Positions 14,572-52,022 of a DNA stretch of 53,700 nt are shown here, piece by piece. The DNA is from a virus (Duplodnaviria > Caudoviricetes): positions 1 through 53,700 of the IMG/VR virus record IMGVR_UViG_3300023178_000062; one strand, written 5' to 3'. How positions within the stretch are numbered: the first letter of the stretch is position 1; every line of letters starts with the position of its first letter. The position numbers and the translations under genes are program-made. Below the pieces are notes generated by a model. That model made no database searches. It saw only the letters and a program-made list of their open reading frames with translations, and had not been told where the DNA came from.

Positions 14572-17500
14572 ATGGCACAGAATACTAACCTTAATGTATC
14601 CCCATATTATGACGACTTTAATAGGGATAAAGACTTCTACCGTGTTCTGTTCAGGCCGGGATACTCTGTTCAAAGTAGAGAATTAACTACTTTACAGAGT
14701 ATCCTACAAGAGCAGATAGAGAGGTATGGTAATTATCAATTTAAGCAGGGGGAACTAGTAACTCCTGGAGAGGTTGGTTTAAATACTAAATTAAATTACG
14801 TTAAGTTATCTTCAGTTTCTGAAGTTGCTATTAACGAAGGTGGAGAAATTGTATATAGAAAATATGATATCTCCGGTTTGGTTGGTGGCACTTTAGTAGG
14901 TGTCACGTCTGGAGTCCAAGCAACAGTATTGGCAGTAAAGACAGAGACCACAAGTAATTCAGATACACTTTTTGTTTCCTATATTTCAAGCGGAGATTCT
15001 ACTACAGAACCAACCTTTAGACAAGGTGAGTTGCTAGAAGTTGTAGATGGCGTAAATACTCCAGTTTTAACTGTTGGCACTGATGGTGCAGTGCTACCTA
15101 ATTTTATTTCAATTACTGATGTAGAAACTGAGATTACAGAAACTGTATTCAGTCCTGCCCTTGGATTAGCAGCTGCAGTTGATATTCAAGAAGGAATCTA
15201 TTTTGTAAATGGATTTTTTGTAAGAAATTCTTCTCAACTTTTAATTGTTGATCCGTATAATAATAAACCATCAGCAAAAGTTGCATTTAACATTACTGAA
15301 AATATTATTACCCCAGAATTTGATGAGTCATTATATGATAATTCTAGAGGTTCTTCTAATTTTTCTGCTCCTGGTTCACACAGACTACAGATTGAATTAG
15401 TTGCTCAGTCATATGGATATAATGAGATACTAGACAAAAATAGTATCGAACTTATTACAATTAAGAATGGTTCTGTTCTTAAAAAAATTAAACAGAAAGA
15501 ATATAATGTTTTAGAAGAAACTCTAGCAAGAAGAACATTTGATGAATCTGGTGATTATGTTGTAGATAATTTTACATTTGATGTAAGAGAATATGTACAG
15601 ACATCCGACAATACTGGATTATTTTCTGTAAATTCATCTACAGGTTTAGTTAATGGACTTCCACAATCTGAAGCAAAGCAAAAATTAATTGGTACTGTTG
15701 GTCCTGGTAAGGCATATGTAAAGGGTTATGAGATTATTAACAAAGAAACTAAGTATCTAACTCTAGACAAGGCAACAGATACAATTCAAAGAAATAACGT
15801 ACTATTAAAATATAATGGTGCGAGTTCATTTTATGTAACTAATGTATATGGAAGTGTTCCAGTAAACGCAGAAGGTGTAGAATTAGAATCATATCCATCA
15901 ATCTATTTGATGAATACATTTAATGATGGTGGAGTTGGTTTAAATGGATTAACTAATACTTTTAGAAATACAGATAATCATCGTGGAGAGTTGATGTCTG
16001 ATGGTCCACCAGACTCTGTAGGATTTGACTTAGATTTGGAACCAAGTGACATTGCGGTCAAGACTATATGGGTAGAACGTAGTACTCAGATACTACCATC
16101 TTATGTCGAGACTTTCTTACCAGCGCCAGGAGACCTCCTGTGGGTCATTAGAAACTATGATGTACAAGAAGGGTCAGGAACTACAAGAACTGCCACTACA
16201 GAGCGTGTGAGAGTTGTCTCAACCGCATTGGTTAAGAATGAAAAAGTTGCTCCTGGTTCTGCTGTACGTTATGCTGAGATAACTATTGCTGGAAAGAGAG
16301 ATGTTGTTGATGCATTATTTAAAGATTTTGATTTGGGCGATCAACAATCGAGAAGAAGAGTTTTCTTATCATATGAGAATGCTTTTACAGTAAATGCTTT
16401 ACCAACAGAAGATGAGCAGGGAAATCCAATTGTTCCACCATTAACAAGAGAAAACTACTATTGGGGAACTATTGTAGATTATACTGATGCAGTTTCTCCT
16501 GTAATTGGTTTATGTAAACCATCCAATTTTATCTTAGAAAAATATGGAGATGGTTTTAATCCTATTAAAGATAAGATAGCATCCAAAGGAATTAGGGATG
16601 AGCAGGAAGAGTATAACAGTATCTTCAAATTTGGTTATTTTGCACCTCAATTTTTTACAAGACTCAAGTTAACTGAATTTATCACTGATGGATTTAGACC
16701 AGGAAAATATGTTAATGGTATTACAAGTGGTGCATATGGAGTTGTTGAAGGAACCACTGGCGGTGTATATTCTTCCACAGATGTTTTACATTTAAAAGTA
16801 CAATCAGGAAAATTTGTTGAGGGAGAAACTCTGGTTGATGAAGATGGAAATTTATTGAAAGTTGCTACTAGTAATACAATTTCTCACTTTGTAATTCATA
16901 ATCAAGGAACATCATATAACAGTTCATCCGTTGCTATTATAGATGGACAGGTTTATGATAGATCTAAAATTGCAATTAATAGAGTTGACGATGGTGTTCA
17001 ACTTGCAACAATTTCTATTGAAGATGATGTTGTAAGAGATATTAAATATGTTAATCCTCCAACGATAAGAATTACTGAAGGAACCGGAGCTATTGTTACA
17101 GCTGTTTTATTCCAAGAAACTGTAAAAACTTATACTCCACAAGATGTAAAATCTTTCTATGGTTCTTACGGTTCCGGTTCACAGGGACAAAATATTTTTA
17201 CCGCTGATGTTGTTTCTGATAATGCAAATTATGCCACATTTACAAAAATTTCAGATTCAACATTTAGTGGTGAGAAAGGATTAAATTACCTTTCAGTAAA
17301 TTCTTTATCAACAAATTTATCGCAAATTTTAAAGCAAACTGATATTGTTCAGTATGTTGATGACTTAGGTAACGTTACGAGAGCTATTGTTTTATACTCC
17401 ACTGCTTCTACAGGAACTCAGAAAGCAAGAGTGTACTTAGACTCCGTTCTTAGAGAAAATGTTTCTAGTAGTATATTAAACAAAATTTCTACCAAAGTTG

Positions 17501-20500
17501 ATAATCCAACATCTTCATTAATTTTCCAAACTGGCAGTAAATCTGTTGCTTCTCTTGTTAGAGATATTACCGATTCCAAAATTAGTTATTTCTTTAGAAG
17601 AGATTTTGTTGCTACAGGTTCATCTTCGGGTGGTTCCCTAACTTTTGCTGCTCAACTTCCATACGGAACTCAGAGATTTGTCTCCTTTACAAAGAACAAT
17701 TATGTAATGACTGTTTTGGATCCTGGCGTGGGTGATGTAGTTAATTTCCAAAAAGGTGATATAGTATACATTAGAGATGAGTACATTGATATAGAAAATT
17801 CTACAGATGAGTCTAGTGGATTAGTTGCTGGTACTGCAACAATTACTTTCCCAACTGATTATTTTGGGGAAAATATGTCTACTTACCCTAAGGTAAAATT
17901 AACTGCATCTCTTGAAGTAAGTAAAGCAAAACCAAAATTAAAAACATCCGTAAAAAATAAAAGAATTATTGTTACTTCATCAAACGATAATGTTATTCCA
18001 TTAAGAGGTAATGATTATGATTCTGGAGACATTGGAATTTTCTCATATTCCGATGTATATAAATTAGCATATGTTTATGAAGGTTCATTAACTGAACCAC
18101 CAAAAGTTGATTCTAGTGGACAATTAATTTCAGGAAAAGATGTTACCGACAGATTTATTTTTGATGATGGGCAACGTCCTTCTTACTATGATGTCTCTAG
18201 ACTCATTTTAAAACCAGGGGAGCAGGCACCAACTGGTAGGTTGGTTGTTGGTTTTGATTATTTTGAGCATTCCCAAGGAGAATTTTGCACTGTTGATTCT
18301 TATGTACATGAGTCTGGTGTTGACATTAATGACATTCCTTACTACAATTTACCTTCCGGAAGGGTTTCTCTTTCCGACGTAATTGATTTTAGACCTAAAG
18401 TAGATACAACTGTAGTAACTAGTGGTTTCCAAGATGGATCTATTTTGGCAAATCTAGATTATATTTCTTTTGATAAATCTGGCGGTGTCCCATCAGTTTC
18501 TCCTGCTCCAGATAGTAATCTAGAGTACACTGTAAAATTTGATGAGGTAAGTTATCTTAATAGAATTGATGCTTTGTTTATTGATAAAACTGGCGAATTT
18601 ATTATCAAAAAAGGAAATTCATCTAAGAATCCATCTAAACCTGATAGTGTAGAAGATTCAATTCCTTTATATTACATCTATCTTCCAGCATTATCACAAA
18701 ATTCAGAAGACATTAAAATTGTGCCTGTCGATAATCGCAGATACACAATGCGTGATATCGGCAAGTTAGAAAAGAGAATTGAAAGACTAGAATATTACAC
18801 TGCGTTGAGTATTCTTGAACAACAGGCATTGAACATGCAGATTAAGGATTCTCTAGGATTTGATAGATTTAAGGGTGGATTCTTAGTAGATAATTTTGAA
18901 AGTCATGGAGTTGGTGACGTAGAATCTTCCGAGTATGTTTGTGCTATTGATCCACAACAGTCAGTTTTAAGAGCACAAGTTTATGAAGATAATATCAAAC
19001 TTGTGGAAGCAAATACCAGAGAAGATGAAAGATTCTTTGCTGGATATCAAAAAACTGGTAACGTTATTTCGCTTCCATATACATCAACATCATTAGTTGG
19101 AAACAATTCTGCTACAAAGACTATTAATCCAAACCCATTTGTTGTTTTACAATACGTTGGAGAAATTCACATTACTCCAAACGTAGACCAGTGGTTTGAC
19201 AGCACTATTGTTCCATTGGTTACAAATAACAATACCAATTTGTTTAATGTATATATTGCGAAGAAAAATGACCCGCAGAATGCAATTGCTTCTATTTACA
19301 ATTCATTTATAATCTCCTGGAGTGGTGTTGATACTGCGTTTAATTCTATAAATTCAGTATCTACTAACAATACAAATTTTGCTGAATCTAGCACAACTAA
19401 CTCTTTAGTAGCAAGTTCTTCTAATGTAAGTCCAAACAATAATAATCTTGGAAAAGGATTATCTTCTGAGGTTAAAAATGGTGTTGCAATTTCTACTGAC
19501 ATTCAATTCTTTGCTCGTAGCATTCCAGTTAAATTTGTTGTTACGAGAATGAAACCAAGAACTACTATCTATCCATTTATTGATGGTAGAGACGTAAGTA
19601 GATGGACTATTCCTGATTCTGATTTTACCGGTATTCCAAGTTCTTCACTATCAACATTTGGTTCCACAATAACCACAGATGATGCTGGTAACGCTAGTGG
19701 TATAATTTTACTACCAGCTGGATTTGCACCAGTTCAAGGAACCTCTTGGACAGGAAATATTCTTGACGTTGTTTACGATGAGGGTTCAGAAAAACTCAAT
19801 TTGGTATCTGGTAAAAAAACTATTAGATTTACTTCAAGTCAAACAAATGAGCAAAAAGATGTAGTTGATTCTTATGCTGAGGTTGTATTCTATTCACAAG
19901 GAACTAAACCACAGAATCCACCATCTATAATTTCCACACAACCTTCTCTATTCAAATCAAATGAAGGAATTCAATTTGTGGAAAGCAATACAGATAATCC
20001 AATAAAACCAAATCCTTTAGCACAGACTTTTAGAATAGAAAATTTTGATGGTGGTGTATTTGCGACAGGTATAGATCTATTCTTCAGTAAGAAAAGTTCT
20101 AGTATACCAGTAAAAGTATATTTAACTGATGTTAATATTGGAAAACCCGGAAAAAATATTATTCCAGGAACACAAAAAATATTATTACCCAAAACCTATT
20201 TGAAAGTTACTTCAACTGGTTCTATAACAATTAGAAATGATGATTTAATTTCTGGTGTAACTTCAGGTTCAATTGGACCTCTTGAAAAAATCTTGGATAG
20301 AAATGGAAATGAAGTTACTCTAATTGGCGGAGTAAATTATAACCTAACTAACGAACAAGTATACACTTTTGTTCTATCAAATCATAATGGTAAGTCATTT
20401 ATTCAAGACGAAGCATTATCTTCAGCATCAATTACTTCCTATAATAATACAAACAATACAAATATTCAACTAAAAATTACTAAAGATTATGGTAAAATTT

Positions 20501-22176
20501 CAAAATTTGTTGTTGAAAACGTTGGTTCAAATTATGATGGAGCAATTTTAACTGTTGAAAGTCCACAACTACCAGGCGAAAGTCAAGCAGCTGTTGCTCC
20601 TTATGTTTCTAATGGTATTGTATATGATGCAGAATTATCCTTACCTGGTTCCGGATATACATCTGCACCATCAGTTATTGTAAAAGGAATTGGTAGTGGT
20701 GCAAATGGTGCTATAGTTAGAGCAATCCTTGATATTGATACTCCTGCAGTGAGAATGGGAGTTGCTGTTGATGATGGATCTAATCCAAATTCAGCAACAC
20801 CAACCAAATTTGTGTTTGAAAATCCTGTTTATTTACAAAATGATTCTGATTATGCTATACAAATTGAAACTGACTCCACAGATTATCTATTGTGGACATC
20901 AAAACTTGGAGATGTTGAGGAATTAACAGGCGTTAAGGTAAGTTCTCAACCTTTACTTGGTTCTTTATACAGGTCACAAAATACTGACACTTGGGTTGAA
21001 GATTTATTTGAAGATCTTAAATTTACATTAAATCGAGCAAAATTTGATATTTCTAAACCGTCTAGTTTAACACTAGTAAATGACGATTTAGAATATCAAA
21101 AATTATCTCTAAACCCAATAGAGACTAATTCTGGTTCTAATACTAATGCCACATCAGATTTATTTAAATCTAATAATTCTGTGTTTAAAGTTTATCAGAG
21201 AAATCATGGTTTTGAAGGTAAAGGGAACTCAAAAGTTTTCTTTAGATCTGTAGATAATTTTGCAGGATTATCAGGAACTTCATTCATTCAGAATTATTAT
21301 ACTGCAAATTCTGTTGGTATTGATACATATACAATCAAATCTATTTCTCAGGCGGGAGATAGTGTAAGAGGTGGGGGTTCTAATGTTTACGCAACACAGA
21401 ACATTAAATTTGAAAAAATTTATGCTGACATTGCAAATTTACAGGCACCCAATACAAAAATTACATCTTCAATTAAAACTACCAATGTAGTCCCAATTGA
21501 CAACCCAACAAATAACTATGTGTCATATAGCACATCAGATTTCGAAACAACTTTCTTAAATCAAGAACAATATTTTGAGAATCAAAAATTTGTTTGTTCA
21601 AAAATTAATGAGGTATTAAATGATACTGGTAAATCTTTAGCATACAAATTTGATTTGTCTTCTGAGGTAGATTACCTATCACCAATCATTGATCTTAGAA
21701 ATGTAAGTGTAAAGACTTCATCTTCTAGAGTAGAAAATGCAACTGGTTATGAAGATAGATATGGCAAGAGGTATCAACTACTAGAATTCTGGCCAGTGTA
21801 TCAATTTGTTATTCAAGGTGTAAATACAGCGGAAACTCCAATTGCGGAACTACAAGTAATTAGGGGAAGATTGTCTGGAGCACAAGGTATTGTAGTTTCA
21901 GCAGATGGTTCTAATCTTGTAGTGAGAATGAACAACAATGGTATTTTTGAAACAAACGAGGGTATTATCTTTAGTGACCCAACCAATTTAACATTAAATG
22001 ATAATTTAAATATAAAAATTGCTAGTGAAAGTATTATTAATAAGATTAATCCCCAATTTAATATTAACGATGGAGTAGTTGCGTATAACCCAACTGCTGA
22101 TGTAGATTATAATAATATTATTGACGGTAAGGTAATTCTATGGGATGGTAAGACTGGAATTCTTACAATTTCATGA
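14572..22176 (+). CDS. VrlC-like (DUF4815-type) large virion structural protein, main part
   Basis: N-terminal NLNVSPYYDDF...FYRVLFRPGYSVQSRELTTLQSILQ, LARRTFDESGDY, RRYTMRDIGKLEKRIERLEYYT, PLAQTF; the gene that normally follows gp8 in cyanomyoviruses. Confidence 0.85.
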   Translation: MAQNTNLNVSPYYDDFNRDKDFYRVLFRPGYSVQSRELTTLQSILQEQIERYGNYQFKQGELVTPGEVGLNTKLNYVKLSSVSEVAINEGGEIVYRKYDISGLVGGTLVGVTSGVQATVLAVKTETTSNSDTLFVSYISSGDSTTEPTFRQGELLEVVDGVNTPVLTVGTDGAVLPNFISITDVETEITETVFSPALGLAAAVDIQEGIYFVNGFFVRNSSQLLIVDPYNNKPSAKVAFNITENIITPEFDESLYDNSRGSSNFSAPGSHRLQIELVAQSYGYNEILDKNSIELITIKNGSVLKKIKQKEYNVLEETLARRTFDESGDYVVDNFTFDVREYVQTSDNTGLFSVNSSTGLVNGLPQSEAKQKLIGTVGPGKAYVKGYEIINKETKYLTLDKATDTIQRNNVLLKYNGASSFYVTNVYGSVPVNAEGVELESYPSIYLMNTFNDGGVGLNGLTNTFRNTDNHRGELMSDGPPDSVGFDLDLEPSDIAVKTIWVERSTQILPSYVETFLPAPGDLLWVIRNYDVQEGSGTTRTATTERVRVVSTALVKNEKVAPGSAVRYAEITIAGKRDVVDALFKDFDLGDQQSRRRVFLSYENAFTVNALPTEDEQGNPIVPPLTRENYYWGTIVDYTDAVSPVIGLCKPSNFILEKYGDGFNPIKDKIASKGIRDEQEEYNSIFKFGYFAPQFFTRLKLTEFITDGFRPGKYVNGITSGAYGVVEGTTGGVYSSTDVLHLKVQSGKFVEGETLVDEDGNLLKVATSNTISHFVIHNQGTSYNSSSVAIIDGQVYDRSKIAINRVDDGVQLATISIEDDVVRDIKYVNPPTIRITEGTGAIVTAVLFQETVKTYTPQDVKSFYGSYGSGSQGQNIFTADVVSDNANYATFTKISDSTFSGEKGLNYLSVNSLSTNLSQILKQTDIVQYVDDLGNVTRAIVLYSTASTGTQKARVYLDSVLRENVSSSILNKISTKVDNPTSSLIFQTGSKSVASLVRDITDSKISYFFRRDFVATGSSSGGSLTFAAQLPYGTQRFVSFTKNNYVMTVLDPGVGDVVNFQKGDIVYIRDEYIDIENSTDESSGLVAGTATITFPTDYFGENMSTYPKVKLTASLEVSKAKPKLKTSVKNKRIIVTSSNDNVIPLRGNDYDSGDIGIFSYSDVYKLAYVYEGSLTEPPKVDSSGQLISGKDVTDRFIFDDGQRPSYYDVSRLILKPGEQAPTGRLVVGFDYFEHSQGEFCTVDSYVHESGVDINDIPYYNLPSGRVSLSDVIDFRPKVDTTVVTSGFQDGSILANLDYISFDKSGGVPSVSPAPDSNLEYTVKFDEVSYLNRIDALFIDKTGEFIIKKGNSSKNPSKPDSVEDSIPLYYIYLPALSQNSEDIKIVPVDNRRYTMRDIGKLEKRIERLEYYTALSILEQQALNMQIKDSLGFDRFKGGFLVDNFESHGVGDVESSEYVCAIDPQQSVLRAQVYEDNIKLVEANTREDERFFAGYQKTGNVISLPYTSTSLVGNNSATKTINPNPFVVLQYVGEIHITPNVDQWFDSTIVPLVTNNNTNLFNVYIAKKNDPQNAIASIYNSFIISWSGVDTAFNSINSVSTNNTNFAESSTTNSLVASSSNVSPNNNNLGKGLSSEVKNGVAISTDIQFFARSIPVKFVVTRMKPRTTIYPFIDGRDVSRWTIPDSDFTGIPSSSLSTFGSTITTDDAGNASGIILLPAGFAPVQGTSWTGNILDVVYDEGSEKLNLVSGKKTIRFTSSQTNEQKDVVDSYAEVVFYSQGTKPQNPPSIISTQPSLFKSNEGIQFVESNTDNPIKPNPLAQTFRIENFDGGVFATGIDLFFSKKSSSIPVKVYLTDVNIGKPGKNIIPGTQKILLPKTYLKVTSTGSITIRNDDLISGVTSGSIGPLEKILDRNGNEVTLIGGVNYNLTNEQVYTFVLSNHNGKSFIQDEALSSASITSYNNTNNTNIQLKITKDYGKISKFVVENVGSNYDGAILTVESPQLPGESQAAVAPYVSNGIVYDAELSLPGSGYTSAPSVIVKGIGSGANGAIVRAILDIDTPAVRMGVAVDDGSNPNSATPTKFVFENPVYLQNDSDYAIQIETDSTDYLLWTSKLGDVEELTGVKVSSQPLLGSLYRSQNTDTWVEDLFEDLKFTLNRAKFDISKPSSLTLVNDDLEYQKLSLNPIETNSGSNTNATSDLFKSNNSVFKVYQRNHGFEGKGNSKVFFRSVDNFAGLSGTSFIQNYYTANSVGIDTYTIKSISQAGDSVRGGGSNVYATQNIKFEKIYADIANLQAPNTKITSSIKTTNVVPIDNPTNNYVSYSTSDFETTFLNQEQYFENQKFVCSKINEVLNDTGKSLAYKFDLSSEVDYLSPIIDLRNVSVKTSSSRVENATGYEDRYGKRYQLLEFWPVYQFVIQGVNTAETPIAELQVIRGRLSGAQGIVVSADGSNLVVRMNNNGIFETNEGIIFSDPTNLTLNDNLNIKIASESIINKINPQFNINDGVVAYNPTADVDYNNIIDGKVILWDGKTGILTIS

Positions 22177-22771: not shown

Positions 22772-22971
22772 TGAAAAATTATTATAAAGTGGAAGGTCAC
22801 GAAAATTTGTATCGTGACCCAAATACTCATGCAATTATTAACACTGAAAAACCCAATAAAAACCAGTTGAGACAGCATCTTGACACAACTGCGGACGACA
22901 TAAATAGTTTGAAGGAAGATATACGGGAACTTAAACTTCTGTTACTGGAGCATATAAAGAAACATGGCTAA
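22768..22971 (+). CDS. Small conserved cyanophage protein with C-terminal coiled coil
   Basis: KVEGHENLYRDPNTHAIIN followed by heptad DINSLKEDIRELKLLL; overlaps both neighbours. Confidence 0.8.
   Translation: MMKNYYKVEGHENLYRDPNTHAIINTEKPNKNQLRQHLDTTADDINSLKEDIRELKLLLLEHIKKHG
22899..22906 (+). promoter_or_regulatory. Intragenic late promoter for the 2918-aa gene
   Basis: CATAAATA about 60 nt upstream of the ATG at 22964. Confidence 0.55.
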
Positions 22972-25900
22972 AAGAGAAGTAAAAAGATCATTTACCTTTG
23001 AGCAACAACGCCAGGAAATCAACCTGCTTGCTGATGATACAGGTGATAAAGATCTACTGACTACCACAGATAAAAATTCTCTAGTTGATTCTATCAACGA
23101 AGTAGTCACTGTTCCAGAGGACGAAATTTTCGTTGACCAAATTGCAACAAGTTCATCTGAGCAAAGGATGGTCTTTGTTGATGAGGCGACCCGTATTGCT
23201 GCAGCAGACTATGAAACTATTGGCAGTAAGCCATCTGGTACTCTTCCCGGTTATAATCCAGATTTTGGTCGTTTAGCATATGATGCGGTAAGTGATACTG
23301 ATGCCACTAGATTTACATATAATTCTTCGACTGATCTCCTCCGTGTTCCCAATGTAAAGGCGGATATCAGAAATAGAAACAACGAAGGTATTTCCGATTC
23401 TCCAGGTCAGGAAATACTTGATATTAATGTAAATGTTGATGGTCATTCTCCTTCAGAAACAGCAAGATTAACTGGTAGACTGAGAACTCAGGCTACTAAT
23501 TCCCCTATTGAAATTCAGAAGAGTTTACTTAAACTAGAGCAGAGAGCAAGAGCAGAAATTTCTAATGGTTCTGCAATTGATTTATTTACGGGGCAAGATG
23601 TTGGTGCATATATTAATGTAACTAACAACAAGAAAATTTTATATGTTAGTGCTGATGATGAGAACGCTACAGATATTCCATCTAATGATGGTAGCAATAT
23701 CAACAGACCATTCAAATCTATTGAAAGAGCACTGATTGAAGCAGCAAAGAGAAGTTATGTTGCCCCTGGTGTTGGTTCAGAAGAAGGTGAAACTGGTGCT
23801 GACCTGTTTGAAAATTTTACAATTCTACTCTTTCCAGGTGAATATATCATTGACAACTCTCCTGGCGTTGATGCAAATGGAGATGCTTTTACTGCAGCAG
23901 ATATTGAAGAAGAAATTAAGTCAAGACAAGGTGAGGTATATAACAGCACCACAAGTTTTGCAAACGAACTAAAGAAATTTAATCCTGTTGAAGGTGGACT
24001 TATTGTACCTAGAGGTACATCTATCGTAGGTTTAGACCTGCGTAAAACTTTAATTAGACCTAAGTATGTTCCCGATCCTGCAGATGATGCGGTATCTAGT
24101 TCTGCTATGTTCAGGCTGACAGGTGCTTGCTACATCTGGCAGTTTACTATTAAGGATACTCCTAACGCATTTGGAAGTCATCATAAACTAACTGCTTTTG
24201 AATATGCCAACTATCATCAGTTAGAGAACTACTACAAAAAAATTGACAAATATAGTAGAAATGATGAGACAACTAATCCTCCTGCTGGAAGATTTAAAGA
24301 TGCTGAAAATATTCTACTAGATAACAAGCGTTTTATTGCTCAACTTGCTGTTGCTTATGTTGAAAGAAATAACGCTACTTTATCAGCAAATATTGACATT
24401 TTAACTGATGGTTTAGATCCAAATTTCCCAGGAGGAGTAGTAAACTTAGATGGCAGTGTAGCAGACCCAACACAAACAGTTGGTGAGTCTTGTGTAGATG
24501 ATACTGTTCTACTTATTGAGAGAATTGCTTACAACCTAGCGCATGGCGGAAACAATCGTGTTGTAGAAGCAGCACAATTCTATCGTGACAATAATGTACT
24601 ACTTGGAGAAGAAGCAGAAGCAGTAGAAGTATTCCAAGCAGCAAATGAGATTTGTCAATATATTGTAAATAACTATGATGTCCTAGAAGATAAAAATAAC
24701 GTAATTACAAGAGACTTTGCTCCCGGTGGAGTAAGTGTTCTTGATACCACACTACTGAATGTTGATACTACATTTAGCTCACAGATATTTGATTTCAATC
24801 TTTTACCAGACCTTAGTGCTCAAACTGCTGGATATGAGATTGACGACCCAACAGACCCAGCAGGATGTGCTAATGTAAGAAGTGCTATCAACACATTCTG
24901 GGATATAATTATTCAAGCTGTTGATGTCGATGCCGATCCCGGTTCACCCATTGGTCCAACAGGTGAAGAGGATTACAACCAGAGAATTGAAGAAAACAGA
25001 ATTGTTGGTTTCGTCCAGAACAAGTATCTGTCTGACACTGTTGCTTCAGCATCTCCATATGTATTCAACATCTCACTACGCTCTGTATGGGGTCTGTGTG
25101 GTCTCTTGAGCGACGGTGCTCAGTCCACAGGTCTTCGCTCTATGGTGCTGGCGCAATACACTGGCATCTCCCTACAGAGAGATGATAGGGCATTCATTTT
25201 GAATGGAACTACCACAAGTCAGGTAGAAGACCCTGACGAGAGACATTCTAACTCTATTGCTGAGTATAGAAAAGATTGGAGACACTTCCACATTAAGTCC
25301 AGAAACAATTCATTCCTACAGATTGTGTCTGTGTTCGCTGTGGGACAGGCAGACCACTTCACAGTAGAGACAGGTGGAGACCATTCAATTACAAACTCCA
25401 ACTCAAACTTTGGTAATCAATCTCTGATTGCTGTATCTCACAGAACAGAAATCTTCAAGCAGGACAATGGTGCTTTCATTGTTGGACTAGTTCCACCTAG
25501 AGGATTGGATCCCACTAGAGAAAGTAGAGTTAACATCTACAATATTGATTTTGGTTCAACTTTAGCAAGATGGAATGCTGGAGATATTAATTCAAATACC
25601 GAAGGATTTAGAAAAATTTATGTTAAAGTAGACGGAGAATCACTAATCAAAGAAGGTGATATTCCAGAATACTACTCCATACGTCCAGGAACAACACAAG
25701 AACAAGCAGAACTATTAGTTGATGATGTAAATTACCTTTTAGGTAAGAGACAGTATTCTGATGGAGATCCAGAAGCAATTTATGCAAGACTACCAAAGAA
25801 TTTTGACGAATCTCAACTAGAGACTTTTGCTGCAAGATTAAGAGACAACACTACATTTGCTGGTACTCCAGACCAGTATGACCCAGCAGATGTATATTCC

Positions 25901-28900
25901 GAAGGAAAAATTTCTACCGAGGCAACACTTTTAACTGGTGGTTCTATTGCAGCGGCATCTCTTGAAACTTCAGTTAAAAGTTTCTATGCCATCCAAAGCA
26001 CTTCCACATTAAACTTTGGTGATGTTGGATTCGGAACTAATGAAATTATCACTGGAACTGATATTAGTAATGCTTTCCCAACTTCCCCAACAAATGCTGT
26101 TCATTTTGGATTTCCCTCTGGTGGTGGAGTTGCTGCAGCAACGACTAGATATAAATTAATGGTCGGAACCAATACCGGCGATTTTAGATTTGAAATTGCA
26201 GAAGCATCTATTAAAACAGTTGCATGTGAAGGAACCTCTGTTCCTGTAGCAGATACAGATTCAGATTTAGAAAATATTTTATATCAAGCAGTATCAGGTG
26301 TTCCTCAAGCAGGTCAAGTTCAATACACATATAATCAAGTAGTGTATGGGGGAAGCGCCGCAATTGATGCATTGAGAGCAACAGGGCAAGGTGCTAGATT
26401 TGATGTTTATAGAACAAAAAATGAAAATAGATATGTAGTCAAACTCGATGCTAGAGGTATTTCATATAATATTGGAGATACTTTTACAATTGATGGCGCA
26501 GATTTAGGTGGTATCTCTTCTACAGATCCAGCGGGACACGTTCTTACTTTAGACAATGCTACTCTATCTGGAGGAACCGGATATACTGTAGGGACTAATA
26601 TTGCAACCACTGGCGGCACAGGAACTAATTTAACAGTTGATATTATTTCCGTTGACTCAAATGGTGCTATTACAGAACTCAGAGTTAATAATGGTGGTTC
26701 TGGTTACAATGCTGCTGGAGGAGAATCAGTAAGTATTTCTGGAGGAACAATTGCAGCAACCATAGAAACTGAAATTGTTGAGCTAGATCCAACATTAAAT
26801 AACAACGATTTAATTATCCACGTTGTTGCAAATGACAATAGTGGTAATGGTATTGGTAGAAATAATGACTACCCTGTACTTTTCTCCAACTCATCTGCAT
26901 CCGCAGAAACATTAAGCGTAAGGATGTTCATCCGAGACGTAACTCTACCAGCAAATATATCTTACGAAACAAACGATTTATATACTTTTAATTCAATTAA
27001 TGACATTGATTATACTATCCCCAGTGGTGGATTTGATTCCGAATATATTTTCTCCTTAGTCCAAACAACAGGACCAAATCCATGGCAAAATTTTGGTGTA
27101 GTAGCACCAACGGATCCAACTGTTGGTTCCACAACTATTGTTAAAAATAGATTACTTGGTGGTTCCGGATTTAGTGCCACATCAGGATTTAATACAATAA
27201 AATTCCCAGGTTCTTTATTGGGTGGAGTTGATGGAACAAATGATTTCACAGTAACTATCAATACAATTGGTGGTGCCACAATTCCAACTTTGAACTTTAA
27301 CGCTGATAATAGTATTAAGAGAAAATATTATGGTTGGGAGTTTGCAAGAACTATTAATGGAGAATACTATGGTCGCCTAGCAATTCTTGTTGATGACGAG
27401 AGGAGAGGTGGAACCGTAACTATTGAAGGTATTCCCGGAGAATTTGATTATACAAATACTGGAACTAAATTTAACGGATATACCTCTTCCACTAATGTAA
27501 ATGCAACTGCAACTACACAAGCTGGATTGCAATTATCTAGAACCATTACTGGCATTGTTAATAACACTCCTGGCGCTAGCACATTTACTATTACAGTTTC
27601 AAATCCCGTTGATAAACCAGCTCACCCATTCTTTGTTGGTGATGAAGTTTATTTTGACGAAACAAATAATTCTGATGGTTCTTCCCTATCTGGTCCATAT
27701 GTGGTAAGAGAAAGAACTAATGATACAGAATTTGTAATTGGTGTCTCTAATGCAGCAAATCTACCTACCGCTAATTGGATTACTGGTGGAGATGTTTATA
27801 AATTCTCTGAATCTAAGACTATCCCTGTTCAAGCAACAGTCGGAAACATTGTAATTAACCAGGGTGAAATTACAGCAATCTATCCTAATGATTGGGTAAT
27901 TGGAGCACCAGGTCCACAGGATTACACTAGTGGTTGGACATCATCTGGTTCTAAATTAAGTTATGATGATGTTTTTATTCTAGATACAGGTTCAGATACA
28001 CCTTTCTTACCAGAAACAACAATCACATTTACTATTACAACAGGAGTATTGATTACCAGAGCTGGTCTTACATATAGTAGTGCTGGTATTAAAGAAGAAG
28101 GTTATCTAACTGGTAGTGCATTGGGTGTTGACTACAAACCATTTGATGAAACTAGAACATTAGAGCAAAACCAAGTTACTTATGATCCTGAGTTCTCAAC
28201 TACTAACGAAAACTTATCTCTATTAAGAAGAATAACACAAAGAGTTGATACAAATCCTGTTTCTGGAGCACTTGAGCAAAGCGATAATTTTGAATTCAAT
28301 GATAACGTTATTAGTTCTCTTTATGTTAATAGAATTCAAGATTCTAGAGCAGCAAATGGTAATAATGAATTGCTATGGAGATTGATTTGTAAAGTTCCTA
28401 AGGATGGATATAATAATATTAAGTTAAGAGCACCGGAAGGTAAGTTTATTATTCACCTTAAGGATCCTGGTATTGGATTTGGTGATGAAACACTAGACTA
28501 TCCTTTTGTCTATGATTCTGCCCAAACAGGTATCATTAGAAAGTTCTCTGTAGAGACAGTAGGTACAGATGAGGTGGCAGCGTCACCATCTACTCAAGAA
28601 TTCAAAAAGAGTTTGAAGAGAGGTGGAAACGGAACCTATACAGATTATGCAGAACTTGACATCGGTTCTGGTGTTGGTGGAGAAACTTTAGTACCATCCG
28701 ATGCTACATTTACTGTTGCTAGTGGAGAAGTATCTCTTGTCAATCCAGGAACAAATTATAATAAGGGTGATAAATTAACTTTACCTGGCGGCACAGTAAT
28801 TATTGTTACTGAAGCTGTCACAACATATCCTAAATCATTCTTCGTTAGACAGGTAGAACCAATTGTTGAATATGAGTACAACGTGAGAGATGGATACTAT

Positions 28901-31720
28901 CTACTCACTATGTTAGATGGTAATATCTATGAGGAGTATGACCCAGAAACTGACACAGTATCCAACAATGATAAAACCATTATCTATGGTAAGCAGCGTC
29001 TAATTGGTCTTGAAGATATTGACCCTGTTGATGGTATTGCTAATGAAGTTAATCACCTCAAGCAAGATGGTTCTGACCTTATCGAGAAGAACAGACTATT
29101 CATCCAAAGAGAATGTGCTGGATTTATTCTAGCAGAATCTCAAACTGGTGAGCAGTTTGCTGGATTCAATAATCCAGATGCCGATAGATGTTCAAGAGAC
29201 GTTGGACACTTAGTAAATGCTATTGTAAAAGATTTGAGATTGAGTGGAAATAGCACTGTCATTAACAACGGACAGTATTATTTCTCTGCTGGTACTCAAC
29301 AGTTCATTGAAACTGAACTAGCACAAACCAGAGCAACATTTGAATATGCTAAGAATCTTGCAGTTGCTTCGATAAGAAACTGGTCATTCTACGAATTAGC
29401 AACAGCGGTAACACCTAGCACTGGTGCTGGTGGAGACGTATTAACTCTAGAATCTGTAGATGGTATCGTTGAGGGTATGGAAGTATATGAAGCAACTGGT
29501 ATTGCTGCTCTTCCATCTAATGAAACTGAATATAACACTGCCCAAGCGGCAACTACATTTATTGGATATACAGGACGTGTTGATAGGTCAGCAAATACCG
29601 TTCAGGTATTTGATATTAAAAATAGATCCGGTAGATTTGGTACAGGTTCCCCATCCATTGCAAATCCAGTCTTTAGATTTGATATGGCACAAGGTATGGG
29701 TGATGGAGATTGGAGAACAGAATCTGATACTCCACCAGCAGAGCATCTTATTCAACCAGTAATTGACAACACTGTTATTGTAGATTATGACCACGCTACT
29801 GGAGAATGTCAGGATGTTGTTTCTGCTGTAAATGTACTTTACACCATTCATGATGAAATTCTACAAGCAACACCCGCTGATGTCTCAGCTGTTGCTGCAA
29901 CAGCAACATTTACATCAACTTCATTGTCTGATGGAGAAACAATTAGAATCTTTGGCGCTCAAAATCCAGCGTTTAATGGAGAAGATATTGTAGTTACCGA
30001 TGAGGGTGCAAACGTATTCAGTTATGATCTTGCGGTAACTTTCTCAGGAACAGTAAACGATAAAATTCTTTACTATCCTTCCTCCGTCAACTTTACTGAA
30101 CCTACCAAAGCATCTTATGATACTGAAGAAGTAACCCTAGAGGGTCTTGGATATAATCAAAATATTAACTACCTATATCCAGAGGCAGACTTAGATAATC
30201 CCAAGTGGAATCCAAAAGCATCTGTTTCTCAATATAGAAAAGATGTTGGTAACACCATCATTAGAGATAATACATTACAAGCGGACGAGTATCAAAGAGT
30301 CAGTCAATATTCTATTACTTCAGAGTCAACTAAAAAAATTCTGAATAGTATTTTGACTGGTGGAGCAAATCCAACAACAGGATATAATATAAGATCTTAT
30401 TCAGAGATTGACTTAGATACCGAATTTGAACTATCTTCCTTTGGAGAGACAGAGGTTACGGATACTATTATGGAAAATCCATATGGATTTGAAGATAGTA
30501 GAAATGAGTACGGTGTTCCTAAGTCCGCAGTCCTAGAGTTTACAGCACAAAATGTTCCTATCTTTACTGACAGATGTATCATTTTTAATAAGGCAGTTCC
30601 TGTCTCGTTCTACAGACCATCTATTATCCGTGCTTCATCTCATACTTGGGAATATGTGGGATTTGGTCCAGGTAACTACTCAACTGGTTTACCACAGTTC
30701 CAAGACATTACACTAACTCAGCAAGAAATTGTTAACTCTCAAACTATTGAGCGTGGTGGTGGATTTGTTGCATCTTCTGGTACTAACTCCACAGGTGATT
30801 TCTATATTGGCAACCAAGTTATTGATGCTAAAGGAAACCAAAGCAACACACTTAATTTCCCAAGACTCAAGACATCTGCTGAAAATAGACTAATTGATTA
30901 TACTAATCTTGATTCTCTTGCCGCCAATAGTTCTACTGCTTCATTCAACCCATCAACATTCTCTGCAGTTCTAACAAATGATCTGCAAGCGATTCAGGAA
31001 GCACAGAGAAACTCTTTCAAGGCATCCAACATTGAGTCTTCAATTCTTACTGCTGGCACAATTAAGATTAATAACAAGATTAGCATTTCAAATAATGTAT
31101 TTGAAAATGAAGAGAACTTCCCAGTTGCAAGGCAAGACACTTATGGTTTCTCCAAACGTGCTCCAATCAACTGGTTCAATAATGATCCAGCAAGTGAAGC
31201 ATATCAAGCACTAGATGATTCATTTATATCCCCAACAGACTTGTCTGATTGGGCGAATGTCAACTCCTTAATTCCATCTATTCCTGTTGCATGGAACACA
31301 GTTTATAAGACAGTAACTTTTAATGAAGTTTCTAATGTTGGTGATGTCGATATTAATGATACTTTAACAAAATCTGTTAACTTCAATGTATCTGGTATTG
31401 ACCCTATTGATGAGAGATGGTATGACGCCGTTACTGATACTATTTCCATTCCTCTTGGTACACCAGTTGACACAGTTAACAACACTACCTTAGCTACATA
31501 TGATGGTAGGGCGGGACAAATTTATATTAGTTTCTCCTCCACAGTTAAAGCAGCATCTATCATTCCAACAAACATTTGGAAACCTCTAGAAAATACATGG
31601 ACTGGCGTTAGCCCCGTTGATGGTTCACCAACCACATTTATTCAAGGAGATAGATTTGTAATTAGTTATTACATAGCAGCGGGTCAGATTATTTACTCAG
31701 TCAGTACACTAGACGCATAA
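22964..31720 (+). CDS. Giant tail fibre/spike-like virion protein (2918 aa) with beta-helix-like segment and helical inserts
   Basis: N-terminal FTFEQQRQEIN anchor; YVS...NDG...RPFKSIERAL, VPRGTSIVGLDLRKT, SPYVFNISLRSVWGLCG, SITNSNSNFG and RPSIIRASSHTWEYVGFGPGNYSTGLP motifs of cyanophage structural proteins. Confidence 0.75.
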   Translation: MAKREVKRSFTFEQQRQEINLLADDTGDKDLLTTTDKNSLVDSINEVVTVPEDEIFVDQIATSSSEQRMVFVDEATRIAAADYETIGSKPSGTLPGYNPDFGRLAYDAVSDTDATRFTYNSSTDLLRVPNVKADIRNRNNEGISDSPGQEILDINVNVDGHSPSETARLTGRLRTQATNSPIEIQKSLLKLEQRARAEISNGSAIDLFTGQDVGAYINVTNNKKILYVSADDENATDIPSNDGSNINRPFKSIERALIEAAKRSYVAPGVGSEEGETGADLFENFTILLFPGEYIIDNSPGVDANGDAFTAADIEEEIKSRQGEVYNSTTSFANELKKFNPVEGGLIVPRGTSIVGLDLRKTLIRPKYVPDPADDAVSSSAMFRLTGACYIWQFTIKDTPNAFGSHHKLTAFEYANYHQLENYYKKIDKYSRNDETTNPPAGRFKDAENILLDNKRFIAQLAVAYVERNNATLSANIDILTDGLDPNFPGGVVNLDGSVADPTQTVGESCVDDTVLLIERIAYNLAHGGNNRVVEAAQFYRDNNVLLGEEAEAVEVFQAANEICQYIVNNYDVLEDKNNVITRDFAPGGVSVLDTTLLNVDTTFSSQIFDFNLLPDLSAQTAGYEIDDPTDPAGCANVRSAINTFWDIIIQAVDVDADPGSPIGPTGEEDYNQRIEENRIVGFVQNKYLSDTVASASPYVFNISLRSVWGLCGLLSDGAQSTGLRSMVLAQYTGISLQRDDRAFILNGTTTSQVEDPDERHSNSIAEYRKDWRHFHIKSRNNSFLQIVSVFAVGQADHFTVETGGDHSITNSNSNFGNQSLIAVSHRTEIFKQDNGAFIVGLVPPRGLDPTRESRVNIYNIDFGSTLARWNAGDINSNTEGFRKIYVKVDGESLIKEGDIPEYYSIRPGTTQEQAELLVDDVNYLLGKRQYSDGDPEAIYARLPKNFDESQLETFAARLRDNTTFAGTPDQYDPADVYSEGKISTEATLLTGGSIAAASLETSVKSFYAIQSTSTLNFGDVGFGTNEIITGTDISNAFPTSPTNAVHFGFPSGGGVAAATTRYKLMVGTNTGDFRFEIAEASIKTVACEGTSVPVADTDSDLENILYQAVSGVPQAGQVQYTYNQVVYGGSAAIDALRATGQGARFDVYRTKNENRYVVKLDARGISYNIGDTFTIDGADLGGISSTDPAGHVLTLDNATLSGGTGYTVGTNIATTGGTGTNLTVDIISVDSNGAITELRVNNGGSGYNAAGGESVSISGGTIAATIETEIVELDPTLNNNDLIIHVVANDNSGNGIGRNNDYPVLFSNSSASAETLSVRMFIRDVTLPANISYETNDLYTFNSINDIDYTIPSGGFDSEYIFSLVQTTGPNPWQNFGVVAPTDPTVGSTTIVKNRLLGGSGFSATSGFNTIKFPGSLLGGVDGTNDFTVTINTIGGATIPTLNFNADNSIKRKYYGWEFARTINGEYYGRLAILVDDERRGGTVTIEGIPGEFDYTNTGTKFNGYTSSTNVNATATTQAGLQLSRTITGIVNNTPGASTFTITVSNPVDKPAHPFFVGDEVYFDETNNSDGSSLSGPYVVRERTNDTEFVIGVSNAANLPTANWITGGDVYKFSESKTIPVQATVGNIVINQGEITAIYPNDWVIGAPGPQDYTSGWTSSGSKLSYDDVFILDTGSDTPFLPETTITFTITTGVLITRAGLTYSSAGIKEEGYLTGSALGVDYKPFDETRTLEQNQVTYDPEFSTTNENLSLLRRITQRVDTNPVSGALEQSDNFEFNDNVISSLYVNRIQDSRAANGNNELLWRLICKVPKDGYNNIKLRAPEGKFIIHLKDPGIGFGDETLDYPFVYDSAQTGIIRKFSVETVGTDEVAASPSTQEFKKSLKRGGNGTYTDYAELDIGSGVGGETLVPSDATFTVASGEVSLVNPGTNYNKGDKLTLPGGTVIIVTEAVTTYPKSFFVRQVEPIVEYEYNVRDGYYLLTMLDGNIYEEYDPETDTVSNNDKTIIYGKQRLIGLEDIDPVDGIANEVNHLKQDGSDLIEKNRLFIQRECAGFILAESQTGEQFAGFNNPDADRCSRDVGHLVNAIVKDLRLSGNSTVINNGQYYFSAGTQQFIETELAQTRATFEYAKNLAVASIRNWSFYELATAVTPSTGAGGDVLTLESVDGIVEGMEVYEATGIAALPSNETEYNTAQAATTFIGYTGRVDRSANTVQVFDIKNRSGRFGTGSPSIANPVFRFDMAQGMGDGDWRTESDTPPAEHLIQPVIDNTVIVDYDHATGECQDVVSAVNVLYTIHDEILQATPADVSAVAATATFTSTSLSDGETIRIFGAQNPAFNGEDIVVTDEGANVFSYDLAVTFSGTVNDKILYYPSSVNFTEPTKASYDTEEVTLEGLGYNQNINYLYPEADLDNPKWNPKASVSQYRKDVGNTIIRDNTLQADEYQRVSQYSITSESTKKILNSILTGGANPTTGYNIRSYSEIDLDTEFELSSFGETEVTDTIMENPYGFEDSRNEYGVPKSAVLEFTAQNVPIFTDRCIIFNKAVPVSFYRPSIIRASSHTWEYVGFGPGNYSTGLPQFQDITLTQQEIVNSQTIERGGGFVASSGTNSTGDFYIGNQVIDAKGNQSNTLNFPRLKTSAENRLIDYTNLDSLAANSSTASFNPSTFSAVLTNDLQAIQEAQRNSFKASNIESSILTAGTIKINNKISISNNVFENEENFPVARQDTYGFSKRAPINWFNNDPASEAYQALDDSFISPTDLSDWANVNSLIPSIPVAWNTVYKTVTFNEVSNVGDVDINDTLTKSVNFNVSGIDPIDERWYDAVTDTISIPLGTPVDTVNNTTLATYDGRAGQIYISFSSTVKAASIIPTNIWKPLENTWTGVSPVDGSPTTFIQGDRFVISYYIAAGQIIYSVSTLDA

Positions 31721-51698: not shown

Positions 51699-52022
51699 AT
51701 GAAGTTTCTTTTAGGACTACTTGCTTCACTATTTTTTGCACTTCCTGCATGGGCTGTTGACGTTCAAATGGGTTACGATGGTAATCTTGTGTTTGAACCT
51801 GCTGAAGTTTCTATTGCTGCTGGGGAGTCAGTTCATTTTGTTAATAATATGCTTCCTCCTCATAACGTAGTTGTGGAGGACCATCCAGAGATTTCACACG
51901 AAGGTCTTGCTATGATGCCCGGCGAAGAATTTGATGTTACCTTTGCTGAAGCAGGGGATTACACATACTGGTGCGGACCACATAAAGGTGCCGGTATGAT
52001 TGGAACTGTTCACGTTTCTTGA
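51699..52022 (+). CDS. petE: Plastocyanin (auxiliary metabolic gene)
   Basis: Signal peptide ending AWA; LVFEP, PPHNVV and YWCGPHKGAGMIGTVHV supply the type-1 copper ligands His, Cys, His, Met. Confidence 0.97.
   Translation: MKFLLGLLASLFFALPAWAVDVQMGYDGNLVFEPAEVSIAAGESVHFVNNMLPPHNVVVEDHPEISHEGLAMMPGEEFDVTFAEAGDYTYWCGPHKGAGMIGTVHVS

Follow-up and report, generated by a model that had tools for sequence, protein, structure and literature searches.

What is a helical domain that resembles an antenna protein doing in the tail fibre of a virus, and could it carry a pigment? The question is raised by the IMG/VR virus record IMGVR_UViG_3300023178_000062 (Duplodnaviria; Caudoviricetes), of which positions 1 to 53,700, hereafter the window, were analysed. 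A tail-fibre protein of 2918 amino acids (aa) is encoded there, and an original prediction, made from the letters of the sequence, had placed in it a third phycobiliprotein-like domain, similar to two repeats of a gp7-like baseplate protein in the same window and provided with a variant of the Cys84 site. Phycobiliproteins are known as antenna proteins of cyanobacteria and algae, while the relatives described here are built into the tail apparatus of viruses infecting those cells. The identity of the fibre domain as a phycobiliprotein-derived module, which belongs to a sub-lineage with the motif C-x-D-D (CxDD) and forms an optional cassette of the fibre, is well supported.

Relationship to phycobiliproteins

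The peptides quoted for the domain are found exactly in the translation of positions 24299-24922 of the plus strand (208 residues, aa 446-653 of the fibre), with C-V-D-D as the motif, and both Cys codons lie where they had been placed, at 24491 (aa 510, within E-S-C-V-D-D) and at 24866 (aa 635, within A-G-C-A-N-V); a third Cys of the domain is at aa 564. The open reading frame (ORF) of the fibre and the parts of the domain are as follows; pLDDT is the predicted local distance difference test score of the AlphaFold2 model.

22964-31720, plus strand: ORF of the 2918-aa tail-fibre protein, from the ORF list; PHROG matches phrog_529 (E 1.3e-191) and phrog_4527 (E 1.9e-167)
24284-24922, plus strand: phycobiliprotein-fold domain, aa 441-653, from the AlphaFold2 model and the fold search
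24371-24478, plus strand: extended loop from helix B to the Cys helix, aa 470-505, pLDDT 49-62
24491-24502, plus strand: C-V-D-D motif, aa 510-513, equivalent by profile alignments to the Cys84/Arg86/Asp87 site, with Arg replaced by Asp
24545-24553, plus strand: G-G-N loop, aa 528-530, which follows the Cys helix and is a signature of the family, near-invariant in the family alignments (G94 and N95 over 58 rows, all three residues over 33)
24668-24856, plus strand: variable G-H insert, containing a short beta hairpin, aa 569-631; strands at model residues 137-140 and 146-149, low pLDDT
24857-24922, plus strand: last helix, aa 632-653, with the Cys codon 24866-24868; model residues 197-218, pLDDT 91-92

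As a single query the domain finds nothing useful: phmmer against the PDB gave only one unrelated match, an L-amino-acid oxidase (E 0.29), and the Pfam phycobiliprotein family PF00502 matched neither the domain nor the whole fibre protein at E<=1. Two matches at E 0.09-0.1 in a Pfam scan of the single domain were taken as chance, and the 2918-aa protein as a whole has no Pfam family. The sister copies in the gp7-like protein are more telling. PF00502 matches aa 2282-2379 of this protein with 22.5 bits (E 1.2e-4), the curated gathering cut-off being 22.2, and a record-wide scan detects both gp7 repeats (E 1.7e-4 and 3.7e-4) and neither of the fibre copies. One gp7 repeat, searched alone against all PDB sequences, returned 12 matches, all of them phycocyanin alpha (E 0.06-0.93), and five of the 14 database entries in the homologue search already bear a precomputed PF00502 label.

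The relationship becomes clear with profiles, which were searched against 177,635 PDB sequences. With the smallest profile (A1, four rows), all 34 matches were phycobiliproteins (best E 0.0071). The 58-row profile A2, in which the fibre domain is the first row, found CpcA as the best match (E 8.2e-6) and 18 sequences below 0.001; phycobiliproteins made up 59 of 60 among the matches listed, the exception being one pilin (0.087). A profile of 33 complete modules (A4) gave a best E of 4.6e-6 and 29 sequences below 0.001, with phycobiliproteins in 60 of 60 among the matches listed, and even a profile of nine rows containing CxDD modules only (A3) matched phycobiliproteins in five of six cases, the best being phycoerythrin alpha (E 0.0067). 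All the profile alignments have a common register, with profile positions 3-65 on phycobiliprotein residues 38-105; the module Cys is aligned to Cys84 of phycocyanin alpha and to its counterpart in phycoerythrin alpha, and the Asp at +3, the second of the motif, falls on Asp87. The Cys84-like site of the original prediction is thus borne out.

The domain was modelled with AlphaFold2 over aa 436-665 from the 58-row alignment (mean pLDDT 74.6, predicted template modelling score 0.75). The model has six helices (aa 441-453, 455-469, 506-527, 531-542, 550-568 and 632-653) and two low-confidence loops, and the domain is predicted to be a globin-type helical core with helices A/B, E, F, G and H. Foldseek against the PDB returned phycobiliprotein chains in 38 of 38 among the matches listed. 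In a fold search independent of Foldseek, the top eight rows were phycobiliproteins (Z 15.1-11.2), and the model superposes, as anticipated, on phycoerythrin beta (5aqd_M) with Z 15.1 and a root-mean-square deviation (rmsd) of 2.4 Å over 152 residues; allophycocyanin follows with Z 13.5, the bilin domain of ApcE with 12.9 and globin-coupled sensors with 10.5. A comparison with BFVD gave 10 matches at E<=0.001; these and the high-probability matches of ranks 1-30 are from Synechococcus phages, uncultured Caudovirales phages or unnamed entries, and the matches from rank 32 on are noise. The last helix had been compared to helix H of beta subunits. This holds at the level of fold, where the model is aligned up to residue 184, the C-terminus of phycoerythrin beta; the likeness by sequence is unsupported, because a profile of the last helix (A6, 34 rows) finds no PDB sequence at E<=10.

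An N-terminal X-Y helix pair, typical of phycobiliproteins, is absent: structural alignments start at residue 25-28 of the phycobiliprotein chain and sequence alignments at 38, and the residues that precede the domain belong to a conserved fibre domain.

Could the likeness be convergent or due to chance, the module being an unrelated helical bundle? Besides the poor yield of the single domain, this would be consistent with an aligned sequence of only about 56 profile positions, and the fold comparison gives further reason for caution: the best Foldseek E value is 5.8e-3, with none below 0.001, and the match may be inflated, since for helical models a best Z of about 14 is possible between unrelated proteins. 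For this reason the fold result counts only jointly with the sequence profiles. These, however, are four independent ones that return almost only phycobiliproteins, in one register and with Cys on Cys84; moreover, the sister gp7 repeat passes the curated Pfam cut-off, phycobiliproteins outrank all other globins in the fold search, and among isolated phages the module is found in cyanophages only. Convergence is accordingly judged very improbable, and the module is a true but distant homologue of phycobiliproteins.

Module family and fibre cassette

The module consists of an N-terminal part (N-part) of about 105 residues, with two helices, the Cys helix, the G-G-N loop and two further helices, followed by a variable insert and by a closing helix that starts with Cys. 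In the 58-row alignment, N19, I23, C75, D78, G94, N95 and Y105 (numbering of the first row) are invariant or near-invariant, and G93, G94 and N95 are near-invariant in the 33 complete modules. The fibre domain carries the whole signature: Asn and Ile in helix B, C-x-x-D, the G-G-N loop and a Tyr about 10 residues later. The signature of the closing helix, C-x-x-V-x-S/A-A-I, is present as G-C-A-N-V-R-S-A-I at aa 634-642. The second Cys is invariant among the complete modules by construction, since these rows were selected on the Cys motif of the closing helix.

The original prediction counted the fibre domain as the third in the window. A hidden Markov model (HMM) of the family, seeded by the window copies and iterated, instead finds two copies in the gp7-like protein and two in the fibre, which brings the number of N-parts in the window to four: aa 2037-2139 and 2281-2383 of the gp7-like protein, and aa 444-570 and 2034-2139 of the fibre. 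The copies other than the domain under study are located as follows.

6952-8343, plus strand: gp7-like repeats, within the ORF 844-11808; N-parts at 6952-7254 and 7684-7986, Cys helices at 7984-8133 and 8194-8343
29063-29890, plus strand: second fibre module, with a C-S-R-D N-part at aa 2034-2139 (family HMM E 1.3e-32); Cys positions 2076 and 2282

The gp7-like modules are nested and not tandem. Two N-parts with a beta-rich insert between them are followed by the Cys helices (Cys at aa 2403 and 2473), and repeat 2 looks as if it were inserted in the G-H loop of repeat 1. Larger beta inserts at the G-H position can be read from the sequence in gp7 repeat 1 and in the second fibre module. In the latter the insert, of about 140 residues, resembles that of gp7 (G-I-V-E-G-M is common to both) and is followed by the Cys helix around aa 2282.

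The proposed use of one module in two virion proteins is supported by phmmer, by the family HMM and by a profile from which relatives were left out. With phmmer against the 21 ORFs of the window, the likeness of the domain to the gp7 repeats is beyond chance (aa 2317-2377, independent E value 3.9e-6; aa 2072-2170, 0.0074), and a weak match is also found within the fibre itself, at aa 2074-2162. The domain scores 72.5 bits with a profile of 49 C-x-R-D (CxRD) modules that contains no CxDD row, compared with a maximum of 7.0 in 2000 shuffles, of which 1820 scored at all (N-part profile, about 106 positions), and 87.0 bits when only its own lineage is left out of the profile. The iterated HMM collected 76 module instances in 15 proteins, and 295 instances in 81 IMG/VR loci. 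The profile of 33 complete modules matched 1546 representative proteins at E<=0.001 in a set of 1.84 billion, the best of them being giant proteins in which as many as 37 stretches are matched.

Among 50,697 phage records, the matching ones (134 of 134 and 190 of 190 in two sets) are named Synechococcus, Prochlorococcus or cyanophage, bar one 'Marine virus' in each set. A restriction of the module to T4-like cyanomyoviruses was considered and rejected, as S-SKS1, a Llyrvirus, and jumbo records carry it too. S-SKS1 (NC_020851), which lies outside the Kyanoviridae according to the taxonomy of its record, has one module at 17466-17777 on the minus strand (E 9.1e-18), in a 928-aa protein. Two near-complete jumbo IMG/VR records, L020 (354,680 bases) and L069 (328,068 bases), have C-x-R-D modules in giant ORFs; these are metagenomic virus records, whose nearest isolate by tblastn is Synechococcus phage DSL-LC03. 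A PF00502 scan of five large IMG/VR records gave matches in giant ORFs only and no ordinary phycobiliprotein gene.

How the domain sits in the fibre can be seen from alignment with the fibres of S-CAM22 and Syn19, which defines two conserved halves of an interrupted domain, one on each side of the module.

23633-24211, plus strand: conserved N-terminal half, aa 224-416; phrog_38839 matches over aa 221-400
25034-25507, plus strand: conserved C-terminal half, aa 691-848

The N-terminal half is 38% identical to the S-CAM22 and Syn19 fibres over their aa 16-214, and the C-terminal half 52-54% identical over their aa 380-540; in these two fibres 165 residues lie between the flanks and there is no module there. 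A relative of the C-terminal flank is encoded by 66 IMG/VR loci, and both flanks are seen in 64 of them. The module lies between the flanks in 11 of these 64 fibres, all with CxDD (CVDD in three, CADD in one, CEDD in seven). Seven others (L116-L121 and L123) have 320-322 residues between the flanks and no module by the family HMM, and their insert may be a different cassette. The fibre of L107 (ORF 1090-5301), 72% identical in the C-terminal flank, has only about 45 residues in place of the 274-residue segment of the window, and is a natural form of the fibre with no insert; the remaining fibres have approximately 124-170 residues between the flanks and no module. On this comparison of sequences, the domain is an optional insertion cassette between two conserved halves of the N-terminal fibre domain, in this fibre lineage. 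The original prediction called the N-terminal region around the domain beta-helix-like; on this point there is a weak lead, as the C-terminal flank, looked up in the Atlas, matched beta-helix and pectate-lyase clusters with scores of only 0.78-0.79, short of the 0.9 line. Four weak Wzz matches (E 0.38-0.58), obtained with a fibre-context profile (A5, 42 rows) against the PDB, were taken as noise.

The loop before the Cys was correctly described as longer than in the gp7 repeats. The difference is about 35 residues with respect to these repeats and 18-20 residues with respect to five orthologues (P0005-P0009), and the long loop is peculiar to the phage of the window.

The R-to-D change of the motif was followed across the family in those modules that extend over the Cys region, 236 of the 295 instances, the other 59 ending short of it. 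C-x-R-D is found in 205 modules, C-x-D-D in 16 and C-x-Q-D in four, while 11 have no such Cys motif. In a maximum-likelihood tree of 62 N-parts (unrooted, 107 columns, with many forks open), all 13 CxDD rows are on one side of a single branch, with support 100/97; the CxDD label needs one change in 100% of the bootstrap trees, and none of 500 shuffles gave a value as low. The CxDD side of the tree comprises the fibre cassettes (C-V/A/E-D-D) and modules of gp7-like giants (Q-D-C-L-D-D). Because one supported branch holds all 13 CxDD rows, the R-to-D change is an old trait inherited by a sub-lineage and no recent lesion. A decaying copy was therefore rejected as an explanation, CxDD being one supported lineage and being kept in 11 of 11 fibre cassettes. 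The cysteines are likewise conserved in orthologues, as the original prediction would have it: five orthologues at 40-66% identity read A-C-[VA]-D-D, so that together with the fibre domain C[VA]DD and the second Cys are retained in six of six sequences; of the fibre inserts, 10 of 10 have both Cys.

The window covers the block from baseplate to terminase in the genome of a T4-like cyanomyovirus, a virus of marine cyanobacteria. Its gene order is the C-terminal domain of gp6, the 3654-aa gp7-like protein, gp8, a 2534-aa DUF4815 protein, the 2918-aa fibre and a 2302-aa protein, and then a neck protein, gp15, the small terminase, a plastocyanin gene and the large terminase; the fibre thus comes after gp8 and before the neck genes. 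At the DNA level, the fibre region has matches in 328 phage records, which are without exception labelled Synechococcus, Prochlorococcus, 'Cyanophage' or 'Marine'. Three further features of the block may be recorded. The plastocyanin gene petE (PF00127, E 1.3e-20) lies at 51699-52022, between the small and the large terminase genes. A YHYH domain (PF14240, E 1.1e-23) is contained in the gp7-like baseplate protein at aa 745-848, positions 3076-3387 of the window. The 2534-aa protein, at 14572-22176, carries DUF4815 (PF16075, E 5.3e-50), and the family HMM finds no phycobiliprotein-like module in it.

Structural module, cysteine site or bilin carrier

In phycobiliproteins Arg86 normally holds the bilin propionate. 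This residue is Asp in the domain and in all 13 CxDD rows of the tree, and by default the Cys84-like pocket is consequently one without the canonical holding of a bilin. The default reading is that of a chromophore-free structural or surface module, to which about an even chance is given. Besides the replacement of Arg in all CxDD copies, it agrees with the segment between helix B and the Cys, which by profile alignment is about 10 residues shorter than in phycocyanin, and with the distribution of cpeT: 26 phage genomes were scored for the module (A1 profile) and for cpeT (PF06206), and six of the 21 module-bearing ones have no cpeT at threshold, while the two near-complete jumbo records with modules have neither cpeT nor psbA/psbD. 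The domain would then be a compact helical knob displayed on the fibre, with a six-helix core and two variable loops, and the invariant Asp, the conserved Cys, the GGN loop and the Tyr may serve to preserve the fold or a small binding site.

Several observations weigh against this default reading. The motif Cys is at least 90% conserved and the Asp D78 invariant in the 58 rows, and C-x-[RDQ]-D is present in 225 of the 236 modules, a degree of Cys conservation well beyond what a simple spacer would require. Cys makes up 1.25% and 1.55% of the residues inside the modules of the two window proteins, versus 0.21% and 0.15% outside. In addition, cpeT is found in 15 of the 21 module-bearing genomes and in none of the five module-less ones (Fisher one-sided p 0.007, shared ancestry being ignored). 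Finally, should the CxDD pocket be dead, the site that matters could still be the second Cys, located where the last helix starts.

The conservation of the cysteines may have another cause. Virion proteins face oxidising sea water, and Cys510 and Cys635 might form a disulfide or a metal or redox site that staples the last helix to the core and hardens the extracellular domain, in which case the resemblance between C-x-[RD]-D and the bilin motif would be an inheritance put to a new use. Two conserved Cys per complete module, in proteins otherwise poor in Cys, fit well with this proposal. However, only 41 of 161 full N-parts have the Cys-helix motif within 70 residues and before the next module, and arrays such as those of L026, L045 and L080, which repeat every ~110 residues, have only one Cys in each unit. 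Conservation of the first Cys there does not depend on a partner nearby, although nested arrays could place the partner further downstream. Also, a second Cys equivalent to the beta-155 region would not be next to the first, since these two sites are apart from each other in phycobiliproteins. A disulfide or metal site is, on balance, held to be unlikely.

The third possibility is that the domain is chromophorylated, with a bilin of the infected cell attached to Cys635 (beta-155-like) or to Cys510 by the phage CpeT or by a host lyase. The fibre pigment would then act as a light sensor or a protectant, and the R-to-D change would tune or re-assign the site. This is considered a tentative possibility, on the doubtful side. 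In its favour, family-wide conservation is seen at the C, D and G positions of the bilin motif, each module has two conserved Cys, and in the genomes scored cpeT never occurs without the module. Among the 16 genomes of Sullivan 2010, cpeT is found in 11 of 13 module-bearing versus none of three module-less genomes by the search alone, in 12 of 13 versus none of three according to Table 3 alone, and in 13 of 13 versus none of three when the two are joined. What phage cpeT, pebS and pcyA do is described as unresolved in PMC3037559.

On the other hand, the fibre copy has lost Arg86. The association between module and cpeT holds in one direction only: B3, DSL-LC03, S-SSM4 and S-SKS1 have modules and no cpeT at E<=0.01, and a strict pairing of module and cpeT was rejected on the basis of the six of 21 genomes mentioned above and of the two jumbo records, which have modules but lack cpeT. 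Furthermore, the three module-less, cpeT-less myoviruses P-SSM2, S-SM2 and S-SSM7 have lipopolysaccharide (LPS) gene clusters in common, and may for this reason represent one lineage and count as a single evolutionary event. Two details of the cpeT counts are worth noting in themselves. Syn1 (NC_015288) has a clear CpeT-family gene at 19950-20462 (PF06206, E 1.5e-35), though Table 3 of Sullivan 2010 lists none; P-SSM7 and S-ShM2 are given as CpeT-like in that table, yet do not reach E<=0.001 in the PF06206 search.

As to the attachment site, the Cys84 position would be served by an S-type lyase of the CpeS family, and the corresponding family PF09367 was found in none of nine genomes, which speaks against a chromophorylated domain. 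The site of T-type lyases in beta subunits is in the region of the last helix, the general area in which the second Cys of the module lies too. These lyases serve the Cys153 position of beta subunits, according to a review (PMC10452541).

A still broader proposal is that cyanophage virions as such carry bilins, the baseplate and fibre modules being chromophorylated in the infected cell by the T-type lyase CpeT of the phage with bilins made through phage ho1, pebS or pcyA, to give a tail photoreceptor that gates adsorption by light; the fibre cassette would take part through Cys635 or Cys510. According to Liu et al. (PMC6628666), P-HM1 and P-HM2 do not adsorb in the dark, while P-SSM2 and P-SSP7 do; the adsorption of S-PM2, as cited in the same text, is light-dependent and photosynthesis-independent, with unknown cause. 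The module matches follow this division, with six in P-HM1, six in P-HM2 and nine in S-PM2, and none in P-SSM2 and P-SSP7. This speaks for a chromophorylated domain as well; the comparison, though, comprises five phages, two of them near-identical. The broader proposal is regarded as decidedly unlikely. If it were true, it would account together for the bilin genes of cyanophages and for the light-only adsorption of some phages.

Whichever reading holds, a Cys-bearing phycobiliprotein domain on fibre and baseplate is a testable candidate for the role of phage bilin genes and for light-dependent adsorption, and whether the virus particle carries a pigment is now open to test. The CxDD sub-lineage, in which the propionate-binding Arg is swapped for Asp and both cysteines are retained, offers a natural contrast of CxRD and CxDD modules for binding experiments. 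If no bilin is bound, as in the chromophore-free default reading, the module would still be a clear case of a host antenna protein recruited as a building block of virions, and the fibre copy indicates that it also works as a single insertion cassette. A full-text literature search found no paper describing phycobiliprotein-like domains in phage virion proteins; the candidate papers, in the parts retrieved, concern lyase or pebS genes only.

Comparison with known systems

Within the window, the domain can be compared with the gp7-like repeats (aa 2037-2139 and 2281-2383), with which it has in common the module family, the order of helices, the G-G-N loop and the terminal Cys helix. Unlike it, the gp7 copies have C-K-R-D and C-R-R-D, belong to other branches of the tree and are nested; the domain in the fibre stands alone as one cassette, and its loop ahead of the Cys is longer.

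Outside phages, C-phycocyanin alpha (CpcA; 7efv_A, 2vjr_A) is the best match of the family profile, and the motif K-C-x-R-D-x-G ... G-G is common to both. The spacing from the Cys to G-G is presumably equal in CpcA and in the module. Only residues 38-105 of CpcA align, however, the fibre copy has C-V-D-D without the Gly after the motif, and two additions of the module family, the invariant Asn that follows G-G and the conserved Tyr, are not signatures of phycobiliproteins.

The best structural match is with the beta subunits of phycobiliproteins (phycoerythrin and phycocyanin beta, for example 5aqd_M, 2vjh_B, 3v57_B; PF00502): 152 of 184 residues of 5aqd_M are aligned, and the three chains have Foldseek target TM-scores of 0.62-0.64. 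Cys at the Cys84 position, Asp at +3 and a second Cys that starts the last helix after a long G-H loop are found in both. In contrast, the domain has no counterpart of the first ~24 residues, Arg86 is Asp and the segment from helix B to the Cys differs in length. The X helix of phycobiliproteins builds the alpha-beta pair. The phycobiliprotein subunits are free proteins of 17-20 kDa, whereas the module is embedded in a virion protein of 2918 aa.

The globins of globin-coupled sensors (DosC, 4zva_A) resemble the domain in having a globin-type helical core, and are sensor domains fused to others; they match less well (Z 10.5-10.4, rmsd 3.0-3.6 Å), have no profile matches and bind haem instead of a bilin. 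The bilin-binding domain of ApcE (4xxi_A) ranks third among the structural matches (Z 12.9, rmsd 2.0 Å over 118 residues). Unlike the phage module, ApcE is a cellular protein, the core-membrane linker of the phycobilisome, and it attaches its bilin by itself, at another Cys position. As in the phage fibre, its phycobiliprotein domain lies within a very large multidomain protein and is interrupted by a loop insertion.

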